Both the position numbers and the translations under genes were made by a program. Source: a virus (Duplodnaviria > Heunggongvirae > Uroviricota > Caudoviricetes). Taken from it: a stretch of DNA of 32,946 nucleotides. Numbering within the stretch: position 1 is the first letter of the stretch; each line of letters begins with the position of its first letter. Below the pieces are notes generated by a model, which was given only the letters and a program-made list of their open reading frames with translations, was not told the DNA's origin and did not search any database. Where the stretch lies: IMG/VR virus record IMGVR_UViG_2713897042_000007; one strand, 5' to 3'. Positions 3,834-25,965 of the stretch are shown here, one piece after another.

Positions 3834-4057
3834 TGCCGGACAACGTAGATTTTATTCAGGAACAACAGGCTGAATTACTGGAGCGTCAGATTAACGCGGC
3901 AAGGGTAAAACATTGCGGTGCTTCTGCGCTGGTTTGCGAAGAGTGTGACGCGCCAATACCTGCTGCCCGTCGTGCGGCTTATCCGTCAGCCACGCGTTGT
4001 GTTTCCTGTCAGTCAGTCTTTGAAGCAAAAAACAAACATTACCGGAGAACGGCATGA
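3833..4057 (+). CDS. TraR/DksA-family C4 zinc-finger protein (P2 orf83 position)
   Basis: 74 aa with a C-x2-C ... C-x2-C arrangement (CEECDAPIP...CVSCQ), typical of the TraR/DksA zinc finger. Confidence 0.7.
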   Translation: MPDNVDFIQEQQAELLERQINAARVKHCGASALVCEECDAPIPAARRAAYPSATRCVSCQSVFEAKNKHYRRTA

Positions 4058-4329
4058 GTATTCGTATTGAAATTGGCGAACGTTATGTCGTTACCAGTGA
4101 CAGCTTTCAGTTTATTCTCCACGAGAAAAAGAGAGCGGAAAGCGGTAAAAACGCCGGTCAGGAATGGCTGGCAGTGGTTGGTTATTACCCGAAATTAAGC
4201 CAGCTCGTTTCCGGCCTGATGCATCACGATATTCTGACCGGAAGCGCAAAGTCTTTTGCTGATTTAAACGCGCAGGTTGAGCAACTCAGCAGGCGTTGTT
4301 CAGAGGCTTTTGGCTCATATGGCCGTTAA
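4054..4329 (+). CDS. Hypothetical protein upstream of A
   Basis: 91-aa ORF, coupled start (ATGA). Its 3' end overlaps the A start. Confidence 0.5.
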   Translation: MSIRIEIGERYVVTSDSFQFILHEKKRAESGKNAGQEWLAVVGYYPKLSQLVSGLMHHDILTGSAKSFADLNAQVEQLSRRCSEAFGSYGR

Positions 4330-6604
4330 AGCCTCCGGGCGTTTTGTCCCTCCGTCAGCATTTGCCGCAGGCACCGGTGAGACGTTTACCGGTGCTTATG
4401 CATGGAACGCGCCACGCGAGGCCGTCGGGCGCGAAAGACCCCTTACACGTGACGAGATGCGTCAGGTGCAAGGTGCTTTATCCACGATTAACCGCCTGCC
4501 TTACTTTTTGCGCTCGCTGTTTACTTCACGCTATGACTACATCCGGCGCAATAAAAGCCCGGTGCACGGGTTTTATTTCCTCACATCCACTTTTCAGCGT
4601 CGTTTATGGCCGCGCATTGAGCGTGTGAATCAGCGCCATGAAATGAACACCGACGCGTCGTTGCTGTTTCTGGCAGAGCGTGACCATTATGCGCGTCTGC
4701 CGGGGATGAATGATAAGGAGCTGAAAAAGTTTGCCGCCCGTATCTCATCGCAGCTTTTCATGATGTATGAGGAACTCTGCGATGCCTGGGTGGATGCGCA
4801 TGGCGAAAAAGAATCGCTGTTTACGGATGAGGCGCAGGCTCACCTCTATGGTCATGTTGCTGGTGCTGCACGTGCTTTCAATATTTCCCCGCTCTACTGG
4901 AAAAAATACCGTAAAGGACAGATGACCACGAGGCAGGCATATTCTGCCATTGCCCGCCTGTTTAACGATGAGTGGTGGATTAGTCAGCTTAAAGGCCAGC
5001 GTATGCGCTGGCATGAGGCGTTACTGATTGCTGTCGGGGAGGTCAATAAAGACCGTTCACCTTATGCCAGTAAACATGCCATTCGTGATGTGCGTGCACG
5101 CCGCCAGGCAAATCTGGAATTTCTTAAATCGTGTGACCTTGAAAACAGGGAAACCGGCGAACGCATCGACCTTATCAGTAAGGTGATGGGCAGTATTTCT
5201 AATCCTGAAATTCGCCGGATGGAGCTGATGAACACCATTGCCGGTATTGAGCGTTACGCCGCCGCAGAGGGTGATGTGGGGATGTTTATCACGCTTACCG
5301 CGCCGTCAAAGTATCACCCGACACGTCAGGTCGGAAAAGGCGAAAGTAAAACCGTCCAGCTAAATCACGGCTGGAACGATGAGGCATTTAATCCAAAGGA
5401 TGCGCAGCGTTATCTCTGCCATATCTGGAGCCTGATGCGCACGGCATTCAAGGATAATGATTTACAGGTCTACGGTTTGCGTGTCGTCGAGCCACACCAC
5501 GACGGAACGCCGCACTGGCATATGATGCTTTTTTGTAATCCACGCCAGCGTAACCAGATTATCGAAATCATGCGTCGCTATGCGCTCAAAGAGGATGGCG
5601 ACGAAAGAGGAGCCGCGCGAAACCGTTTTCAGGCAAAACATCTTAACCGGGGCGGTGCTGCGGGGTATATCGCAAAATACATCTCAAAAAACATCGATGG
5701 CTATGCACTGGATGGTCAGCTCGATAATGATACCGGCAGGCCGCTGAAAGATACTGCTGCGGCTGTTACCGCATGGGCGTCAACGTGGCGCATACCACAA
5801 TTTAAAACGGTTGGCCTGCCGACAATGGGGGCTTACCGTGAACTACGCAAACTGCCTCGCGGCGTCAGCATTGCTGATGAGTTTGACGAACGCGTCGAGG
5901 CTGCACGCGCCGCCGCAGACAGTGGTGATTTTGCGTTGTATATCAGCGCGCAGGGCGGGGCAAATGTCCCGCGCGATTGTCAGACTGTCAGGGTCGCCCG
6001 TAGCCCGTCGGATGACGTTAACGAGTACGAGGAAGAAGTCGAGAGAGTGGTCGGCATTTACGCGCCGCATCTCGGCGCGCGTCATATTCATATCACCAGA
6101 ACGACGGACTGGCGCATTGTTCCGAAAGTGCCGGTCGTTGAGCCTTTGACTTTAAAAAGCGGCATCGCCGCGCCTCGGAGTCCTGTCAATAACTGTGGAA
6201 AGCTCACCGGTGGTGATACTTCGTTACCGGCTCCCACACCTTCTGAACACGCCGCAGCAGTGCTTAATCTGGTTGATGACGGTGTTATCGAATGGAATGA
6301 CCCGGAGGTCGTGAGGGCGCTCAGGGGCGCATTAAAATACGGGCTGAGAACACCAAATCGTCAGCAGAGAAACGGAAGCCCGTTAAAACCACATGAAATT
6401 GCACCATCGGCCAGACTGACCCGGTCGGAAAGAATGCAAATTACCCGTATCCGCGTTGACCTTGCTCAGAACGGTATCAGGCCGCAGCGATGGGAGCTTG
6501 AGGCGCTGGCGCGTGGCGCGACCGTAAATTATGACGGGAAAAAATTCACGTATCCGGTCGCTGATGAGTGGCCGGGATTCTCAACAGTAATGGCGCGGAT
6601 ATAA
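4319..6604 (+). CDS. A: Rolling-circle replication initiator A (HUH endonuclease)
   Basis: Start at the in-frame ATG 4319 gives 761 aa, the P2 A length (track ORF from 4277 is 775 aa). HUH motif TPHWHMMLF and paired tyrosines GYIAKYISK. Confidence 0.92.
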   Translation: MAVKASGRFVPPSAFAAGTGETFTGAYAWNAPREAVGRERPLTRDEMRQVQGALSTINRLPYFLRSLFTSRYDYIRRNKSPVHGFYFLTSTFQRRLWPRIERVNQRHEMNTDASLLFLAERDHYARLPGMNDKELKKFAARISSQLFMMYEELCDAWVDAHGEKESLFTDEAQAHLYGHVAGAARAFNISPLYWKKYRKGQMTTRQAYSAIARLFNDEWWISQLKGQRMRWHEALLIAVGEVNKDRSPYASKHAIRDVRARRQANLEFLKSCDLENRETGERIDLISKVMGSISNPEIRRMELMNTIAGIERYAAAEGDVGMFITLTAPSKYHPTRQVGKGESKTVQLNHGWNDEAFNPKDAQRYLCHIWSLMRTAFKDNDLQVYGLRVVEPHHDGTPHWHMMLFCNPRQRNQIIEIMRRYALKEDGDERGAARNRFQAKHLNRGGAAGYIAKYISKNIDGYALDGQLDNDTGRPLKDTAAAVTAWASTWRIPQFKTVGLPTMGAYRELRKLPRGVSIADEFDERVEAARAAADSGDFALYISAQGGANVPRDCQTVRVARSPSDDVNEYEEEVERVVGIYAPHLGARHIHITRTTDWRIVPKVPVVEPLTLKSGIAAPRSPVNNCGKLTGGDTSLPAPTPSEHAAAVLNLVDDGVIEWNDPEVVRALRGALKYGLRTPNRQQRNGSPLKPHEIAPSARLTRSERMQITRIRVDLAQNGIRPQRWELEALARGATVNYDGKKFTYPVADEWPGFSTVMARI

Positions 6605-6816
6605 TGACAAAGATTCACAAAGTAAAGCTGCACGCAAGATATTTCAACCTTGTGCTGGAGGGAAAAGAAACGCACAGAATTTAGGGGGATAGCCGTTATC
6701 ATGTGTATGAAGCACTTGAAATGTATCTGCATCACTTGGGAGTGTGTCAACGGGGAATTTCCATCTATGTGATTTTTTGAGAGCAATGCAGTGAAGATAA
6801 AGATACTTATTATAAA

Positions 6817-6936
6817 TCAATGTGATAGATGGTGCCTCGCAAACGTAAATGATAGTTTTGAAGCTTCAGGGCTGATGTCGTTCATAAGACTGTGTTTACG
6901 CTATCATTTATGATAAAAATAATTAATTTTTATCAT
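6817..6936. promoter_or_regulatory. Putative promoter/operator of the cargo operon
   Basis: AT-rich region upstream of the 6961 start. Palindrome ATGATAAAAA-N7-TTTTTATCAT at 6910-6936. Related TGATAG/ATGATA copies at 6822-6830, 6846-6854 and, inverted, 6901-6909. Confidence 0.4.
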
Positions 6937-6960
6937 AAAGATTCAACAGAGGATATGTTG

Positions 6961-8466
6961 ATGAATCAACTAAAATCAATGAATATCAATAAGTTACTTT
7001 TGGATGTTGATAACCCTCGTTTCCCGACGTCAGCAGAAAATCAGCGTGATGCTATTGCCAAGATGCTTGACTTGCAGTACGACCGCATTTATCGCTTGGC
7101 TAAAGATATTGCTTCGAAAGGTTTAGATCCGTCTGAAAACATATTAGTTTATCCTAGTGAAGAGGAATCTGGCTTTTTCGTCGTTGCTGAAGGTAATCGT
7201 CGAGTTACAGCCCTTAAACTTTTACACTCTCCTAGACTTGCACCAACAGAAAAAGCACGGAAAGCTTTTGAAAAACTTAAGATTACTCAGCTTAAAGATA
7301 TTAATGTTATAGATAACTGCGTTCTTTTTGACGATGATGAATATGAGCATTGGGTCAATTTAAAGCATACTGGTCAAAATGCTGGAGTTGGAAGAGTTGA
7401 ATGGACTGCAACAGAAAAAGCACGACATCTGGCTAGGATGGGTAAGCAGTCATTTGGTAATCAAATACTTACATTTATAGAGTTCAATACTGATTTATAT
7501 AAAGAGATAATTGCTAAAAAAAGACTTTTAAAAATCACAAACATCACGCGTCTTTTTGGTGATTTAAAGGTGAGGGATTATTTTAATTTAAAAAGCATTA
7601 ATGGAGTTCTATACTCATATCAGCCTTATGAACGTTTTTGTGCACAATTAAAAAATATTTTAGATGTAATGATTGAAGAGGATGATAAAGGTAAGGCTTG
7701 TTTTACTGTTAATAGGATTCGTAGCCAAGATGACAGGGTTACATTTATTATTGAACAAAAAATAAAACCTTCAGAATCTCTTTTAGATAAGCCGTGGAGT
7801 TTACTAGAGCCTAAATCTTTTCTTACAGAGAAAAAACATGATTCTATTGACAAAAATGATGCATCTGTGAGTGTAAAGAAAGTAGGTCTTTCAGAAGGTG
7901 ATGCCTTAAAGAATACAGGTGTGGATAAACAGGAAGATGATTATTCTAGACATGTAGGCACAGAAGAGAGTAAATCTAAAGTTTCGGGTACGGAACAGAA
8001 TAAAAACAAGGGAAAAACTCCTCCTAAAGTAGATCGTAATGTGTTGGTGCCATCTTATGTGAAATTTAATTTTAGAGGGCATAAGAAATGCTCTAGAATA
8101 TTTAATGAGCTTAAGTCGCATCTGACATTTGATAACACCCCTAATGCTATCTCAATATTGTTGAGAATATTTATAGATCTCTCTGTAAGCACTTTTGTTG
8201 AAGAAAACAAGTTACAATTTAAGGAACCACATAGAACTCCAGGGCTTCATGATAAGGTTAAAATGTGTGCTAATTTCCTTCGGGAAAATAAAAAGATGAC
8301 GGGGAGTCAATGTACGGCTGTAATAACTTTCTCGAGCCAAATAACTAAACATGATGGTTCATTGCAGCAGTATGTACATAACCCACACTTAATTCCCTCA
8401 AAAGAGGCTGTCAACACTGAGTGGGATAACTTTGAGTTGTTATTAAGCCTTATTTGGAGTGAGTGA
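6961..8466 (+). CDS. ParB/Srx-like N-terminal domain protein with uncharacterised C-terminal region (cargo)
   Basis: About 501 aa from the ATG at 6961 (GAGGA 7 nt upstream; in-frame alternatives at 6955 and 6892). N-terminus has ParB-type motifs (DVDNPRF; VVAEGNRRVTALKLL, the GxRR box). Central K/E/S-rich low-complexity linker. Visibly AT-rich against flanking phage genes. Confidence 0.7.
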   Translation: MNQLKSMNINKLLLDVDNPRFPTSAENQRDAIAKMLDLQYDRIYRLAKDIASKGLDPSENILVYPSEEESGFFVVAEGNRRVTALKLLHSPRLAPTEKARKAFEKLKITQLKDINVIDNCVLFDDDEYEHWVNLKHTGQNAGVGRVEWTATEKARHLARMGKQSFGNQILTFIEFNTDLYKEIIAKKRLLKITNITRLFGDLKVRDYFNLKSINGVLYSYQPYERFCAQLKNILDVMIEEDDKGKACFTVNRIRSQDDRVTFIIEQKIKPSESLLDKPWSLLEPKSFLTEKKHDSIDKNDASVSVKKVGLSEGDALKNTGVDKQEDDYSRHVGTEESKSKVSGTEQNKNKGKTPPKVDRNVLVPSYVKFNFRGHKKCSRIFNELKSHLTFDNTPNAISILLRIFIDLSVSTFVEENKLQFKEPHRTPGLHDKVKMCANFLRENKKMTGSQCTAVITFSSQITKHDGSLQQYVHNPHLIPSKEAVNTEWDNFELLLSLIWSE

Positions 8467-8535
8467 GATTTGTCTACATCTGGACATGGATGTCCAGAAA
8501 CTGATAAACTACAAAATCAGGAATGAGAGGGATTT

Positions 8536-9420
8536 ATGAAATTTTATACTCCATTAAGATACCCCGGCGGGAAAGGTAAGTTATCTTACTTTTTAAAAGA
8601 TGTTATTGAAAAAAACTCGTTGAATGATGGAGCATATGCAGAACCTTACGCTGGTGGTGCAGGGGTGGCTTTAGAATTATTATTGGAAGAGTATGTCCGT
8701 AAAATCTATATAAATGATGCAGATTTTGCTGTTTATTCTTTTTGGTCATCTGTTGTTAGTGATACTGATGAGCTTTGCCGACTTATTAGCCGAGCAAAGA
8801 TAGATATGGATGAATGGTCTTTTCATCGCTATGTTATTTCGAATCCTTCTGAGTTTACTAAGCTTGAGGTTGGCTTTGCTGCGTTTTTCTTAAATAGAAC
8901 AAATCGTTCAGGTATTCTCAAGGCGGGGGTTATAGGCGGGAAATCACAAAATGGAAAATGGAAAATGGATGTTCGCTTTAACAGGGCGGATTTAATTTCA
9001 AGAATTGAGAAGATAGCAAATTATAATCAAAGAATAGTAGTAACTAATCTGGATGCTTTGGATTTTCTTGATGCCTTGAATTTTATGGATAATATGGGAA
9101 AGGTGGATAAAAATAAAATTCTTTTGTATTTGGATCCTCCTTACTATATTAAAGGGCAAGGGCTTTACAGGAATTTTTATGAGCATGATGACCATGTATT
9201 GGTTATGAAGAAACTCACAGAAATTAATTTCCCAAATTGGCTTGTTTCTTATGATAACGCTAAGGAAATTAAAGATATTTATAATGGATTTCCGCAAGTT
9301 GAGTATTCATTGCAATATACAGCGCATCTCAAAAAATCTGGAGAGGAAGTGATGATTTTTTCTCCTGAAATAATTATTCCTAATACCCTGAAAGGGGTCT
9401 CAATTCCAACTTGCGCCTGA
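8536..9420 (+). CDS. Dam-family (D12 class) N6-adenine DNA methyltransferase (cargo)
   Basis: 294 aa. N-terminal RYPGGKGKL, AdoMet-binding EPYAGGAG and catalytic DPPY align to the same positions as in E. coli Dam. RBS GAGAGGG upstream. AT-rich, co-oriented with the gene before it. Confidence 0.85.
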   Translation: MKFYTPLRYPGGKGKLSYFLKDVIEKNSLNDGAYAEPYAGGAGVALELLLEEYVRKIYINDADFAVYSFWSSVVSDTDELCRLISRAKIDMDEWSFHRYVISNPSEFTKLEVGFAAFFLNRTNRSGILKAGVIGGKSQNGKWKMDVRFNRADLISRIEKIANYNQRIVVTNLDALDFLDALNFMDNMGKVDKNKILLYLDPPYYIKGQGLYRNFYEHDDHVLVMKKLTEINFPNWLVSYDNAKEIKDIYNGFPQVEYSLQYTAHLKKSGEEVMIFSPEIIIPNTLKGVSIPTCA

Positions 9421-9567
9421 TTTTACTTATTTTTTGTCAGTAAGTAATTAGTTTGGTGCATTTATTTGCATTCATTTTTAAATGCCAGTTCTGGTATCTA
9501 ACATCAGTGCTGGCGCATTCTAACCATTACTGCTGCACTGCATTTAAAGCCCTGCATGAAGCGGGCG

Positions 9568-9586
9568 GGCGAGGCGGGGAAAGCAC
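9568..9586. other. cos cohesive-end site
   Basis: GGCGAGGCGGGGAAAGCAC matches the 19-nt P2/186 cohesive end as I recall it. Lies in the non-coding gap just before the portal/terminase genes, as in P2, with G/T-rich repeats to its right. Confidence 0.75.
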
Positions 9587-9728
9587 TGCGCGCTGGCGGT
9601 GGTGCTGATTTTATTTTTTCAGCGTCTCAGCGCGTCGTAATGGCGTTTAGATTGTGCGCCGGGGCGCTGGTGTGTCTGCGGGCTGTTTTGTGCGGTGGTG
9701 AGTGTGTGAGGGCGTGATGACGGGGTGT

Positions 9729-9755: not shown

Positions 9756-10790
9756 TCAGCCGTTGTCTGTGTCCAGTGAGTAGTTTTTAAAGCGGATGAC
9801 CTCCTGACCGAGCCAGCCGTTTATTTCCCGAATCCTGTCCTGTAGCGGGATAAGCTCATTGCGGACAAAGACCTTTGCCACTTTCTCAATATCACCCAGC
9901 GACCCGACGTTCTCCGGCTTGCCGCCCATCAACTGAAAGGGGATGCGGTGTGCGTCCAGCAGGTCAGCGGCGCTGGCTTTTTTGATATTAAAAAAATCGT
10001 CCTTCGTTGCCACTTCACTGAGCGGGATAATTTTAATGCCGTCAGCTTTCCCCTGCGGGGCATAGAGAAACAGATTTTTAAAGTTGTTGCGGCCTTTCGA
10101 CTTCACCATGTTTTCGCGAAGCATTTCGATATCGTTGCGATCCTGCACGGCATCGGTGACGTACATGATGTATCCGGCATGTGCGCCGTTTTCGTAATAC
10201 TTGCGGCGGAACAACGTGGCCGACTCATTCAGCCAGGCAGAGTTAAGGGCGCTGAGGTATTCCGGCAGGCCGTACAGCTCCTGATTAATATCCGGCTCCA
10301 GCAGGTGAAACACGGAACCGGGCGTGAAAGGTGTCGGCTCGTTGAAGGACGGCACCCACCAGTAAACATCCTCTTCCACACCACGGCGGGTATATTTTGC
10401 CGGTGAGGTTTCCAGTCTGATGACCTTACCGGTGGTGCTGTAACGCTTTTCCAGAAACGCATTACCGAACACCAGAAAATCCAGCACAAAGCGGCTGAAA
10501 TCCTGCTGGGACAGCCACGGGTGCGGGATAAACGTTGAAGCCAGAATATTGCGTTTGACGTAAATCGGTGAGCTGTGATGCACGGCAGCACGCAGGCTTT
10601 TTGCCAGACCGGTAAAGCTGATTGGTGGCTCATACCATCTGCCGTTACTGATGCATTCGACGTAATCCAGAATGTCACGGCGGTCGAGTACCGGCACCGG
10701 CTCACCAAAGGTGAATGCCTCCATTTTCGGAGCGCTGGCGGTGATTGTTTTTTCCGCAGGTTGCGGTGTTTTCCCTTTTTTCTTGCTCAT
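9756..10790 (-). CDS. Q: Portal protein
   Basis: 344 aa, the P2 Q length. First gene of the leftward Q-P operon next to cos. Confidence 0.93.
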   Translation of the reverse strand: MSKKKGKTPQPAEKTITASAPKMEAFTFGEPVPVLDRRDILDYVECISNGRWYEPPISFTGLAKSLRAAVHHSSPIYVKRNILASTFIPHPWLSQQDFSRFVLDFLVFGNAFLEKRYSTTGKVIRLETSPAKYTRRGVEEDVYWWVPSFNEPTPFTPGSVFHLLEPDINQELYGLPEYLSALNSAWLNESATLFRRKYYENGAHAGYIMYVTDAVQDRNDIEMLRENMVKSKGRNNFKNLFLYAPQGKADGIKIIPLSEVATKDDFFNIKKASAADLLDAHRIPFQLMGGKPENVGSLGDIEKVAKVFVRNELIPLQDRIREINGWLGQEVIRFKNYSLDTDNG

Positions 10791-12562
10791 CAGTAAAACT
10801 CCAGAATGGTGGATGTCAGCGGGGTGCTGATACCGGCGGTGAGTGGCTCATTTAACAGGGCGTGCATGGTCGCCCAGGCGAGGTCGGCGTGGCTGGCTTC
10901 CTCGCTGCGACTGGCCTCATAGGTGGCGCTGCGTCCGCTGCTGGTCATGGTCTTGCGGATAGCCATAAACGAGCTGGTGATGTCGGTGGCGCTGACGTCA
11001 TATTCCAGACAGCCACGGCGGATAACGTCTTTGGCCTTGAGCACCATTGCGGTTTTCATTTCCGGCGTGTAGCGGATATCGCGCGCGGCGGGATAGAACG
11101 AGCGCACGAGCTGGAACACGCCGACACCGAGGCCGGTGGCATCAATTCCGATGTATTCGACGTTGTATTTTTCGGTGAGTTTGCGGATGGATTCAGCCTG
11201 AGTGGCAAAGTCCATGCCTTTCCACTGGTGACGCTCAAGTATTCTGAATTTGCCACCGGCCACCACCGGCGGTGCCAGCACCACGCATCCGGCACTGTCG
11301 CCACGGTGTGACGGGTCGTAACCAATCCAGACCGGGCGGGAGCCGAACGGATTGGCGGCAAACGGCGCATAGTCTTCCCATTCTTCCAGCGTGTCGACCA
11401 TGCAGCGTTGCAGCTCCTCGAACGGGAACACCGATGCCTTGTCGTCAACAAATTCACACATGAACAGGTTTTTAAAATCGTCGGCGCTGTTTTCGCGTTT
11501 GAGCTGCTCAATGTCGAACAGCGTGCAGCCGCCTTTCAGGGCGTCCTCAATGGTGACAATCTGTCGCCACTGGCCGTCCGCACAGAGAAGACCTCCGGCA
11601 AGGGCGTTATGACTGACGTCGATTTCCACGCGTTCGGCGGCGCTGGCGCGTCCCCGGTTGAACAGTTCACCCGACCAGAACGGGTAGGCGTCGTGCGCCA
11701 GCGTGGACGGGGTGGAGAAATAGGTCGAGCGCAGGTGACTCTGTGAGGCCATACCTGATGCCACCTTACGCAGTACCTGAAAATTCGGGATCCAGAAAAT
11801 CTCGTCGACGTACAGGTCGCCGTTATGGCTCTGTGCGGTGTTGGAGTTGGTGCCGAGAAAAATCAGTTTTGCGCCGTTATTGCCCAGGACAATCGGGTCA
11901 CCGGTAAGGTCAACGTCAACCAGACGGGCAAAGGCGATGATGTATTCGCGGAACACATACGCCTGCGTTTTACTGGCCGACAGAAAAATCTGGTTATGAC
12001 CGGTTTTCAGGGCGCGCAGCAGCGCCTCGCGGGAAAAATAAAACGTTGCGCCAATCTGGCGGGATTTCAGGATATCGCGGATGCGGTGCTCAAGCCCGGC
12101 GCGATACCAGTGCAACTGATAGTCGAAAGACTGCTCAAAGAAAATCTGCTCCAGCTTTTCGATGGCCTCGTCACTGAAAAAATTCTTTTTCGGTTTGCGA
12201 CGCCCGCCTTTGTTGCGGTTAGCGACGTTCGGATTAAGGTCTGCTTCGTTGCCGGTCTGACTGTAGCGGTTGACCCGTGCCAGTCGTTCAATCTGGCGTC
12301 CGAGCAGGTCAATTTCCTTGAAGTCACCGCCGGTTTTCTGCGGTTTGATGATGAGCTGGGTCAGCCGCGCTTCCAGACTCATTTCGACACGGCTGATGGG
12401 GGCAACGCTGTCCCAGCCGTCGCGCTGTTTCCAGCTCTGCACCGTCGGGCGTTTCATCTGCAACATGGCGGCAATCTGCGGCACGGAAAACCCCTGCCAG
12501 TACAGCAGCGCCGCCTGACGACGCGGGTCGTGTAAAAGAGTGGTGTCTGTGGTGATGGTCAT
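10790..12562 (-). CDS. P: Terminase large (ATPase) subunit
   Basis: Start at the internal Met (MTITTDTT...) gives 590 aa, the P2 P length (track ORF is 600 aa). Stop overlaps the Q start by 1 nt. Confidence 0.92.
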   Translation of the reverse strand: MTITTDTTLLHDPRRQAALLYWQGFSVPQIAAMLQMKRPTVQSWKQRDGWDSVAPISRVEMSLEARLTQLIIKPQKTGGDFKEIDLLGRQIERLARVNRYSQTGNEADLNPNVANRNKGGRRKPKKNFFSDEAIEKLEQIFFEQSFDYQLHWYRAGLEHRIRDILKSRQIGATFYFSREALLRALKTGHNQIFLSASKTQAYVFREYIIAFARLVDVDLTGDPIVLGNNGAKLIFLGTNSNTAQSHNGDLYVDEIFWIPNFQVLRKVASGMASQSHLRSTYFSTPSTLAHDAYPFWSGELFNRGRASAAERVEIDVSHNALAGGLLCADGQWRQIVTIEDALKGGCTLFDIEQLKRENSADDFKNLFMCEFVDDKASVFPFEELQRCMVDTLEEWEDYAPFAANPFGSRPVWIGYDPSHRGDSAGCVVLAPPVVAGGKFRILERHQWKGMDFATQAESIRKLTEKYNVEYIGIDATGLGVGVFQLVRSFYPAARDIRYTPEMKTAMVLKAKDVIRRGCLEYDVSATDITSSFMAIRKTMTSSGRSATYEASRSEEASHADLAWATMHALLNEPLTAGISTPLTSTILEFY

Positions 12563-12735
12563 GAATACCTCGCCGTGATGAATACACGGCAAGGCTACTG
12601 AGTCGCGCCCCGCGATTCGCTAATGTGCTGTTGTGTCAGTGATAAACCATCCGGGACTGATGGCGGAGGATGCGCATCGTCGGGAAACTGATGCCGACAT
12701 GTGACTCCTCTAATCACTATTCAGGACTCCTGACA

Positions 12736-25122: not shown

Positions 25123-25965
25123 ATGAAAAAAGAATTGTTTGGACGTTGCCCGTTTGATCTTGACGAAGATGTAAAAAAAATAGCCGCGATAAATAAATAT
25201 ATCCATGCAAAATTTGAGGAGCATAAAAATAAAATAGACAACCTAAAGGGTGTGGAACAAAAATTGATGGTCTTACAGTACTTTAATGTACTGAATGAAC
25301 TTAGTAATCAGGCTATCTCTTCTTTGAATATAGGAGCCTTTTCAGCATCGGAAGTATTAGCTAGGGTTATAATAGAACAGGCTGCCAATCAATTTTATAT
25401 AGCAATAGATGATGGCGAAAATGCACAAGCGTTACTCAAGGCTAGTAAGAAATTAGTTCATAGTAATGGAAAACGGTGGCTGGAGTGTTTAAAATCCAAA
25501 GGAATGACTAATCCAGCAGCAAATGAAAGGATTCGCATGGGAAAAGAACTAACTGATCTATTTAATAGATTGTGGCCAAATACACCTGAATATCCAGGAA
25601 CCAGAAAACTTTTTGAATTAATTGGCTGGGAAACACACTATCATGCCCATTACGTTCCCCTTTGTGATTCAATACATACATTCTCTGATGATATGGTAAA
25701 TATAGTATCTCTATATAATGCAATCCAAAGTGATGAAACTACTGCTATCGAATTCATTCTTGCAGTTAAACAAGAAAATAAACGGCTGGCAATTTATAAT
25801 TTTGTAATTGCTACGGCCCTTCGGTGTGAGGCCTTAGTAAATGTATTTAACTCTTTAGGTTATCAGGATATTATAACAGAAATGACACCAACAATAGATA
25901 CAGTCAACCAGACTATAATTCGATATGATGATTTTGATCATTCCAGAATTGATGATTGTCAATAA
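25123..25965 (+). CDS. Hypothetical cargo protein (position of P2 Z/fun)
   Basis: 280-aa ORF with AGGAGA RBS and a TATAAT-like element about 40 bp upstream. Strongly AT-rich. No catalytic motif I can recognise. Confidence 0.7.
   Translation: MKKELFGRCPFDLDEDVKKIAAINKYIHAKFEEHKNKIDNLKGVEQKLMVLQYFNVLNELSNQAISSLNIGAFSASEVLARVIIEQAANQFYIAIDDGENAQALLKASKKLVHSNGKRWLECLKSKGMTNPAANERIRMGKELTDLFNRLWPNTPEYPGTRKLFELIGWETHYHAHYVPLCDSIHTFSDDMVNIVSLYNAIQSDETTAIEFILAVKQENKRLAIYNFVIATALRCEALVNVFNSLGYQDIITEMTPTIDTVNQTIIRYDDFDHSRIDDCQ

Follow-up and report, generated by a model that had tools for sequence, protein, structure and literature searches.

The genes at positions 6961..8466 and 8536..9420 of the window, by which we mean the whole 32,946-nucleotide stretch of viral DNA analyzed here, almost certainly constitute the anti-phage system PD-λ-5, with a ParB/HEPN protein as subunit A and a D12 m6A methyltransferase as subunit B, carried as low-GC cargo in defense hotspot #1 of a P2-like E. 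coli prophage, between gpA (the replication endonuclease) and the portal gene. The family of the 6961-8466 reading frame is therefore already known as part of a published, named, and validated defense system, described in ECOR7 by Vassallo, Doering, Littlehale, Teodoro & Laub (Nat Microbiol 2022; PMC9519451; proteins RCQ13837.1 for A and RCQ13838.1 for B) and labeled "ParB/HEPN, methyltransferase" in Table S1 of that paper. The identification is supported by the local gene order (gpA, A, B, portal, terminase) and by the fall in GC to 0.35 at the cargo, both of which agree with the published hotspot. Both genes, their order, and the P2 hotspot are alike in ECOR7 and in the window; there is no material difference, and we regard the window copy as another allele. 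B was aligned directly with RCQ13838.1, the validated ECOR7 methylase (291 of 294 residues identical, 99%), while the likeness of A rests on a full-length profile match. From the start of A to the stop of B, the span is 2460 bp in the window and 2461 bp in PD-λ-5 (PMC9519451, Table S2). Two observations are new here: the HEPN domain of A has no family-wide Rx4-6H motif, R402 and H473 being invariant or nearly so instead, and a D12 methylase lies directly downstream of A in 77 of 78 loci.

PD-λ-5 of ECOR7 reduced the efficiency of plating (EOP) or the plaque size of 9 of 10 phages, the T-even phages being hit hardest (PMC9519451). Table S1 of that paper records no escape plaques for the PD-λ-5 clone, unlike the RM clones of the same screen. 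Cloning needed an mrr-deleted host (PMC9519451), which indicates that the methylase of the ECOR7 allele is active in vivo. Phage protection is thus demonstrated for the ECOR7 allele; for the window allele, it is expected from identity with that system. Vassallo et al. read PD-λ-5 as a compacted "RM + Abi" system (PMC9519451).

Subunit A (6961..8466, + strand) is a protein of 501 aa that joins a ParB/Srx domain, a middle domain, a disordered linker, and a HEPN domain. It matches the PADLOC profile PD-Lambda-5_A (E = 5.4e-168, residues 1-500 against profile positions 1-465 of 466) and phrog_9592 (E = 3e-210), and some RefSeq records call it a "ParB N-terminal domain-containing protein." The initial annotation had described the frame as a ParB/Srx-like domain followed by an unassigned C-terminal region, and the frame itself is real. 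Its start at ATG 6961 is supported by a GAGGA Shine-Dalgarno sequence 7 nt 5' of the codon, by the RefSeq CDS of 501 aa at 99.6%-identical loci, and by the homologs and the PADLOC profile, all of which align from residue 1; the stop codon is a TGA ending at 8466. We rejected GTG 6892, the mechanical start of the open reading frame, because homologs and profiles begin at M1 (ATG 6961) and the ribosome-binding site fits that codon. The family comprises 6144 clusters (50% identity) at E <= 1e-3 and 1842 at E <= 1e-30. PDB searches that used the sequence of A, a full-length profile, or a C-domain profile found no relative, the matches being low-complexity and coiled-coil noise. The interpretation in the initial annotation was borne out in part: it missed the PD-Lambda-5_A family and the methylase partner, and the whole protein does belong to a known family, an outcome it had named as contrary to its proposal, although that family is not one of partition proteins.

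Subunit B (8536..9420, + strand), separated from the upstream A gene by 70 nt, is a D12-class (Dam-like) N6-adenine DNA methyltransferase, matching Pfam MethyltransfD12 (PF02086; E = 3.6e-16) and PADLOC PD-Lambda-5_B (E = 1.5e-121) in addition to its identity with RCQ13838.1. The 78 A loci span many bacterial phyla, with a few found in archaeal MAGs, and lie in unrelated genomic contexts; in 74, the adjacent methylase is on the same strand as A, and in three it is on the opposite strand. Since the D12 methylase is an obligate partner, A cannot be interpreted alone, while the three opposite-strand loci show that strict cotranslation of A and B is not required.

The N-terminal domain of A (residues 1-125; 6961..7335, + strand) carries two ParB-type motifs, as the initial annotation had noted: box I, DNPRF, at residues 17-21 (7009-7023), and box II, EGNRR (7189-7203), within VVAEGNRRVTALKLL at residues 74-88 (7180-7224). 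In an alignment of 81 sequences from distant phyla, E77-G78-N79-R80-R81 is 100% invariant and N18 and R20 of box I are 97% conserved, so the motifs are not chance matches. Box II also shows the GxxRxxA phosphate-binding pattern (G78-N-R-R-V-T-A84). The domain adopts a ParB/Srx alpha/beta fold, its best Foldseek matches being KorB and ParB. Pfam ParBc (PF02195) gave no hmmscan match at E <= 1 in A or in any of 36 family members; HHpred assigned ParBc to residues 6-89 of PD-λ-5 A with a probability of 96.4% (PMC9519451, Table S3). ParB folds can bind CTP, ATP, or GTP (PMC12704722), and, given the conservation of its motifs, the ParB domain of A may bind an NTP as well.

A conserved middle domain follows (residues 126-294; 7336..7842, + strand), with an invariant loop H136-T-G-Q-N-x-G142 (7366-7392). 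H136, G142, W148, and R197 (7549-7551) are invariant in the 81-sequence alignment, and the structure model shows helices and a beta-hairpin. Foldseek alignments of A to KorB/ParB constructs containing the N and HTH parts cover about 270 columns. In ParB and KorB, a helical domain comes after the NTPase domain, and by analogy the middle domain of A is presumed to be the DNA-binding part. Beyond it lies a disordered K/S/D/E-rich linker of 57 residues (295-351; 7843..8013, + strand) with AlphaFold2 pLDDT < 50, which coincides with the K/E/S-rich linker previously placed at about 7830-8030. K, E, S, and D make up 49% of the linker and 31% of the whole protein. It is the most length-variable stretch of the family, and its positions carry 56-75% gaps in the 81-sequence alignment, so neither its length nor its sequence is conserved.

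The C-terminal domain (residues 352-501; 8014..8463, + strand) has the helical up-down bundle of the HEPN type, as judged by fold search. The roughly 390 residues behind the ParB motifs had been reported to hold no recognizable motif, which is understandable given that Pfam hmmscan finds nothing there at E <= 1; nevertheless, they contain two conserved folded parts, the middle domain and this one. No HEPN model reached a useful E-value when A and 36 or 10 family members were run through Pfam and NCBIfam hmmscan, and the C-terminal domain shows sub-threshold matches only, to DUF5677, DUF4145, and Csm6-HEPN. Rx4-6H, expected where the last core helix begins, is not a family-wide motif in the 81-sequence alignment; the family-wide motif at that site is [LF]-[NHQ]-x-[YF]-V-H473-[NS], without an Arg, and Y471-V-H473-N474 (8371-8382) is near-invariant. 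R402 (8164-8166), 100% invariant, lies about 70 residues N-terminal of the H473 motif in another helix. The invariant R402 together with H473 points to an active site or a binding site that the family has kept, and the domain may be a nuclease, putatively an RNase. The window protein also contains R425-x4-H430, which we rejected as the catalytic HEPN motif because it is conserved in the gammaproteobacterial branch only. Similarly, a possible link to the DUF5677 protein of hotspot #2 amounts to a 25-residue local hhalign match around the helix-1 arginine (probability 3.7%, E = 0.012); we kept it as a lead and rejected it as evidence. No restriction endonuclease domain (PD-(D/E)XK, HNH, GIY-YIG, or PLD) was detected in A by Pfam, NCBIfam, PADLOC, or fold search.

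Two inverted repeats flank the A gene. A perfect 14-nt repeat, TTTATGATAAAAAT-N5-ATTTTTATCATAAA (6907..6939), lies 22 nt upstream of the A start and overlaps promoter-like hexamers. It is not random, as 14 nt was reached in 0 of 2000 dinucleotide shuffles, and it falls within the 272-bp upstream fragment that is enough for native PD-λ-5 expression (PMC9519451, Table S2). Only its left arm (the -10-like TTATGAT) is conserved in the Enterobacter, Salmonella, Cronobacter, and Edaphovirga orthologs. Since the palindrome is absent from six other loci and half kept in close orthologs, we rejected it as a conserved ParB or operator site of the family. The binding test of A on this palindrome proposed earlier is thus weakly motivated, real and nonrandom though the palindrome is. 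The second repeat, TCTGGACAT-GG-ATGTCCAGA (8477-8496), lies between A and B (element 8477..8510, + strand) and overlaps a promoter-like site found by promoter scan, with a -35 TGGACA, an 18-nt spacer, and a -10 TAAACT with an upstream TG. This repeat is partially conserved in orthologs; in Edaphovirga, GGACA/TGTCC becomes AGACA/TGTCT. The site is a candidate for a separate promoter or operator of the methylase.

How might the two subunits work together? In the literature that we searched, no paper addressed the mechanism of PD-λ-5 or of other systems that combine ParB, HEPN, and a methylase. With confidence about evenly balanced, we propose that PD-λ-5 is a restriction-modification-like module with the HEPN domain as effector. 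Methylase B would place m6A on host and prophage DNA at its target sites. A would engage DNA lacking this mark through its ParB/Srx NTP-binding domain, by way of the invariant box II arginines, and its middle domain. NTP-dependent self-association of the ParB domains would then pair up two HEPN domains, which hang on the flexible linker. Such pairing would switch on cleavage, since HEPN nucleases work as dimers. The most likely target would be RNA, and infection would be halted, possibly at the cost of the infected cell, as Vassallo et al. have it in their "RM + Abi" interpretation. The DNA binding, methylation sensitivity, NTP binding, and dimerization of A are all predictions of this scheme. 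In its favor we count the D12 adjacency, the ParB/Srx fold with EGNRR, the HEPN fold with R402 and H473, and the variable-length flexible linker that joins the two halves; AbiR and the Wphi module, discussed below, provide parallel cases. On the other side of the balance we set the missing hmmscan match to Pfam ParBc and the failure of sequence and profile searches to reach a PDB relative. More tentatively, and with rather less confidence than in the general scheme, A may be a methylation-reading ParB-type NTP switch that loads or closes on DNA without m6A, with nucleotide-driven N-domain dimerization building a noncanonical HEPN site, in which Arg402 and His473 from different helices replace Rx4-6H, that cuts RNA.

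A more conventional possibility, somewhat unlikely in our view, is a compact type II-like RM system, in which A would be an endonuclease that cuts DNA lacking the m6A of B, with catalysis by the ParB/Srx or the HEPN-like domain and defense by direct destruction of phage DNA. A ParB/Srx domain nicks DNA in some family members. Yet PD-(D/E)XK, HNH, and GIY-YIG domains were not detected in A, and, to our knowledge, the HEPN domains characterized so far are RNases or noncatalytic. Moreover, PD-λ-5 produces no escape plaques, unlike the RM clones of the same screen, and gives its best protection against the T-even phages; their DNA contains glucosyl-hmC and is refractory to most DNA-cutting RM enzymes (preprint discussion). 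The phenotype of PD-λ-5 is not that of classical RM; the lack of escape plaques and the strongest protection falling on glucosyl-hmC phages fit a non-DNA target or an abortive outcome.

Alternatively, A might be a latent toxin that continuing methylation, or B itself as a protein, keeps restrained and that is released indirectly by the phage, through SAM depletion, host expression shut-off, or a burst of unmethylated DNA. Incoming phage DNA would not be recognized directly, and the pair would resemble PrrC guarded by EcoprrI or R-M post-segregational killing. Such a guard or addiction module would agree with the "RM+Abi" description (PMC9519451), with the toxicity of AbiR without its methylase (PMC13064643), and with the 9 of 10 phages affected, which fits a general infection cue; likewise, a conserved separate promoter-like element for B would let the A:B ratio be set and disturbed. 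We nonetheless consider it improbable, as an A-B protein interaction would be hypothetical, B is on the opposite strand in three loci, and direct DNA sensing is the simplest account of the conserved DNA-binding-type module of A (ParB plus middle domain). Finally, A could be a housekeeping prophage ParB, acting as a partition or segregation factor or as a KorB-like repressor at the upstream palindrome, with the methylase an unrelated orphan. KorB and ParB are indeed the top Foldseek matches, the perfect nonrandom palindrome overlaps the promoter region, and there is a weak NCBIfam RepB match (E = 0.021). We find this scenario scarcely credible and rejected a ParABS partition or regulator role: the RepB match scores 14 bits against a cutoff of 201, the neighbors are gpA and the methylase with no parA nearby, the element is integrated, and the palindrome is not conserved in orthologs. 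It would also leave the HEPN C terminus and the 77/78 methylase linkage unexplained, and the cloned ECOR7 pair protects against phages.

As a discovery, the locus adds little, since PD-λ-5 has already been published and named, and both PADLOC and DefenseFinder-based censuses list it. Its significance lies in mechanism: this is a large family whose A-B pair is almost always intact over very distant lineages, it protects from T-even phages, on which most R-M systems fail, and it pairs a HEPN domain with a nucleotide switch of the ParB type, modules that are widespread but usually occur apart, and adds methylation as a presumed self mark. If the RNase model is true, PD-λ-5 would amount to an R-M system in which unmodified DNA sets off an RNase that serves as the "restriction" arm, in a two-gene module conserved from Proteobacteria to Actinomycetota and in some archaea. 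Reading of methylation by a ParB domain, together with the role of the atypical HEPN domain, would tie the new biology of the ParB-CTPase switch to immunity. The invariant residues R80, R81, H136, R197, R402, and H473 offer targets for mutagenesis.

Several known systems share parts of this architecture. Canonical CTP-dependent clamps (ParB, KorB, and Noc) have in common with A the N-domain fold, box I (NPR), box II (GxRRxxA), and a helical domain after the NTPase domain; in contrast, A has no ParA partner, parS, or ParB-type C-terminal dimerization domain, ends in a HEPN domain, and is missed by Pfam ParBc and TIGR00180-type models. GmrSD, BrxU, and SspE fuse a DUF262 ParB-like NTPase to a DUF1524 HNH nuclease and are modification dependent (type IV) or PT sensing. 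They rely on an HNH DNase, mostly without a cognate methylase, whereas PD-λ-5 has a HEPN-fold effector and an obligatory methylase, and their box II reads DGQQR or DGQHR in DUF262 rather than EGNRR. PD-T4-2, from the same screen, likewise brings ParB-superfamily and HEPN domains to phage defense (PMC9519451, Tables S1 and S3), yet as two separate proteins, a DUF262 protein and a HEPN protein, without a methylase and with a DUF262-type N-domain where that of PD-λ-5 A is of the ParBc type. PrrC-EcoprrI and RloC, like PD-λ-5, couple DNA methylation or restriction to a HEPN-class RNase that aborts infection, the "RM+Abi" concept invoked by Vassallo et al.; PrrC differs in its ABC-ATPase N-domain, in being a separate protein within a full type I R-M operon, and in its trigger, the T4 Stp peptide, while a separate restriction enzyme is absent from PD-λ-5. 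Lactococcal AbiR (AbiRi-iii plus the LlaKR2I methylase) has a ParB-like component and depends on a DNA methylase, in whose absence it is toxic (PMC13064643), but it comprises three proteins, including Snf2/REase-like and sigma70-like ones, lacks HEPN, and borrows its methylase from a neighboring R-M system. The gp98-gp96-Mth module of phage Wphi (PADLOC candidate PDC-M38A) occupies the same P2 hotspot as PD-λ-5, and its gp98, which adjoins a DNA methylase, has the module of ParB and middle domains in common with A (26% identity over residues 2-308); it differs in having no fused HEPN, an extra gene, gp96, without detectable domains, and a C5-cytosine methylase encoded on the opposite strand.

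The gene pair at 6961-8466 and 8536-9420 (both on the + strand) is almost certainly PD-λ-5, the two-gene system from ECOR7 (RCQ13837.1 and RCQ13838.1; Vassallo et al., Nat Microbiol 2022, PMC9519451). Its first product, A, matches PADLOC PD-Lambda-5_A across its full length (E=5.4e-168), and its second, B, a D12-class adenine methyltransferase (Pfam PF02086), matches PD-Lambda-5_B (E=1.5e-121). The methylase is identical to RCQ13838.1 at 291 of 294 residues, and A start to B stop spans 2460 bp here versus 2461 bp in Table S2 of PMC9519451. The A ORF ends at 8466, and its start at ATG 6961 is supported by a GAGGA Shine-Dalgarno sequence 7 nt 5' of it, by the RefSeq length of 501 aa, and by every homologue beginning there. 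Since PD-λ-5 is already published, the system is known rather than new. The ECOR7 pair protects against phages, most strongly T2, T4, and T6; escape plaques were absent with the original clone; the methylase activity suffices to turn DNA into an Mrr target, and the cloning host necessarily lacked mrr (PMC9519451). Our literature search found no mechanistic study of PD-λ-5, later papers merely counting or citing it. The interest left lies in its mechanism, for which we supply a model open to test, residues to target, and support from structure prediction.

The published domain labels of A were based on HHpred, with 96.4% for ParBc over residues 6-89 but only 35.6% for DUF4145 and 8% for HEPN_RiboL-PSP at the C terminus (PMC9519451). 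With a cutoff of E<=1, Pfam hmmscan detected neither ParBc nor HEPN in the window protein or in 36 relatives, and PDB sequence and profile searches with A returned no match. Sequence models by themselves thus support the domain calls weakly, and the structure was therefore predicted, with 99 aligned sequences as input. The model covers the whole protein (mean pLDDT 84.4) and shows two ordered parts, residues 1-294 and 352-501, separated by a disordered linker. In a Foldseek search of the PDB, the top matches were Caulobacter ParB and KorB-CTPγS (probability 0.98-1.0, E about 8e-3) and the next ones sulfiredoxins, upholding the ParB call of the initial annotation. That reading had left the C-terminal region unassigned, which agrees with the lack of a Pfam match but not with structure prediction and fold search, by which it is an HEPN fold. 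Its interpretation was partly right: the ParB call holds, and the C terminus, for which it suggested an effector or DNA-recognition function, has an effector-like HEPN fold. The tentative HEPN label of the literature is thereby raised to a structurally supported one.

Conservation was assessed by aligning 81 proteins whose loci come from many phyla. The ParB-type motifs first noticed by eye, DNPRF (residues 17-21) and VVAEGNRRVTALKLL (residues 74-88), are real: E77-G78-N79-R80-R81 is invariant (81/81), and N18 and R20 are kept in 79/81, so chance does not account for these motifs, which must be strongly selected. The K/E/S-rich linker, also noted initially, coincides with residues 295-351 (window 7843-8013), the one segment that AlphaFold2 models as disordered; K, E, S, and D make up 49% of it, and it varies more in length than any other segment in the family. 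Residues 126-294, which connect the ParB domain to the linker, form a conserved middle domain, modeled as helices and a beta-hairpin, in which H136, G142, W148, and R197 are invariant and W131, G138, and G144 nearly so. Foldseek alignments to KorB/ParB constructs with an HTH domain extend over ~270 columns, and by this analogy it is reasonable to regard the middle domain as a putative DNA-binding part.

The motif that defines the HEPN family, Rx4-6H, is not kept as a family-wide feature of the HEPN domain of A in the same alignment. The conserved stretch is instead [L/F]-[N/H/Q]-x-[Y/F]-V-H473-[N/S], and the only invariant arginine of the domain, R402, is located in an earlier helix. R425-x4-H430 of the window protein was rejected as the catalytic motif, being present only in the gammaproteobacterial branch. 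To judge from these residues, the domain would either have a non-canonical active site, with R402 contributed by another helix, or be non-catalytic, as are the HEPN domains of sacsin and Roquin.

The methylase partner is obligatory and its linkage to A near-absolute. A D12 methylase lies directly downstream of A in all six loci reached through individual homologues, which include a Methylomonas chromosome by Tn7-like genes, a MAG, an ArdA-bearing conjugative element, and Enterobacter and Serratia P2-like prophages, and likewise in the Salmonella, Cronobacter, and Edaphovirga loci (3/3). A family scan of one genome per species yielded 409 confirmed relatives, from which 80 loci were kept in addition to the earlier ones. 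Among the 78 loci with at least 950 bp past the A stop codon, 77 carry, within -150 to +300 bp, a methylase resembling PD-λ-5B (E<1e-40), on the same strand in 74 and convergent in 3. The exception, from Actinocorallia sp. (A homologue at 3971-5500 of locus L060), has a D12-like ORF (E=3.8e-21) about 1.3 kb upstream, at 1499-2704. Among the hosts are Proteobacteria, Bacteroidota, Bacillota, Actinomycetota, Acidobacteriota, Chloroflexota, Cyanobacteria, Nitrospirota, and Spirochaetota, along with a putative Saccharibacteria MAG and putative Micrarchaeota and Methanobacteriota MAGs; an exhaustive profile search found 6144 clusters (50% identity) at E<=1e-3 and 1842 at E<=1e-30. Pseudomonas phage OQ658368.1 carries a 291-aa D12 methylase ORF convergent to its PD-λ-5A homologue (locus L088, 4397-5272, - strand), over which the deposited record has no CDS. 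Distant PD-λ-5 pairs adjoin AAA_15/AAA_21 ATPase genes in L004 (3406-7210), a conjugative element also carrying the anti-restriction protein ArdA, and in L091 (4265-4506), company typical of defense islands or mobile elements.

The window holds a nearly entire P2-like E. coli prophage, with an integrase at its left end and capsid, tail, and late genes beyond the terminase (10790-12592, -). The pair sits between the gpA replication endonuclease gene (4277-6604, +) and the portal gene (9756-10790, -), a P2 defense hotspot occupied in P2 by old and tin (PMC9519451). GC content falls from 0.51-0.53 in gpA to 0.35-0.37 over 7001-9000 and returns to 0.55 in the portal gene. A truncated DUF3850 (P2 orf91-like) pseudogene directly after gpA (~6604-6685), frameshifted and partial in the RefSeq annotation of a 99.6%-identical genome, shows where the inserted low-GC cassette begins on the left. 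By megablast, complete E. coli chromosomes contain the 6600-9700 stretch (99.4-99.7% identity) between the same flanking genes; at least 80% of it is present in only 22 of 5426 complete genomes, the remaining matching genomes covering <80%. The second P2 hotspot, in the tail-fiber/sheath region, holds a 280-aa low-GC (0.35) ORF (25123-25965, +) whose product belongs to DUF5677 (Pfam E=5.3e-10) and to phrog_4167 (unknown function) and has no PADLOC match. It is possibly an uncharacterized defense gene, perhaps HEPN-like. Of the 36 PD-λ-5A relatives, 6 show a weak DUF5677 match in their HEPN-like C domain, and hhalign of the A C domain against this protein gave a 25-residue match only, around the helix-1 arginine (probability 3.7%).

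Two inverted repeats accompany the genes. Just upstream of A, a perfect 14-nt repeat with a 5-nt spacer (6907-6939) overlaps promoter-like hexamers; its length was reached in 0 of 2000 dinucleotide shuffles, and it may be a local operator. We rejected it as a family-wide ParB site: Enterobacter, Salmonella, Cronobacter, and Edaphovirga orthologues, in which the 5' UTR and RBS are well conserved, retain only the left arm (TTATGAT, -10-like), and loci further removed lack a repeat of this kind upstream of A. As far as sequence comparison goes, only the E. coli lineage has it. The 70-nt spacer between A and B contains TCTGGACAT-GG-ATGTCCAGA (8477-8496), which overlaps a promoter-like site (8477-8510; -35 TGGACA, 18-nt spacer, -10 TAAACT with an upstream TG). 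This repeat is partly conserved in close (Enterobacterales) orthologues alongside a TATACT-type -10, and Edaphovirga shows a paired, compensatory-looking change (GGACA/TGTCC to AGACA/TGTCT), which together suggest that the methylase may be transcribed separately from its own, possibly regulated, promoter/operator. Separate methylase transcription is common in restriction-modification systems.

This analysis established which residues are invariant, the fold assignments, and how nearly absolute the linkage of A and B is; the mechanism is a proposed model, which we consider about evenly poised between right and wrong. B would mark self DNA, and the ParB-type nucleotide-binding domain of A, with the middle domain, would engage unmarked DNA. 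Nucleotide-dependent association of the N domains, as in ParB/KorB clamps, would then unite two linker-tethered HEPN domains, whose pairing would switch on cleavage, with RNA as the probable target. Such a scheme agrees with the absence of escape plaques, the strongest protection being against glucosyl-hmC phages, and the lack of any classical DNase domain. The main rival, a plain restriction-modification system in which A itself cuts unmethylated DNA, draws on the existence of nickase-active ParB/Srx proteins and seems to us distinctly less probable. A guard or addiction role is improbable, and a housekeeping ParB role scarcely credible.

In phage Wphi (NC_005056.1; locus L087, 28004-32684), the same hotspot is occupied by gp98, which has the module of ParB and middle domain (26% identity to A residues 2-308; PADLOC PDC-M38A, E=9e-25). 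Alongside it are gp96, in which no domain was detectable, and a C5-cytosine methylase in convergent orientation. The arrangement looks like a related design of ParB plus methylase in which the effector is organized differently.
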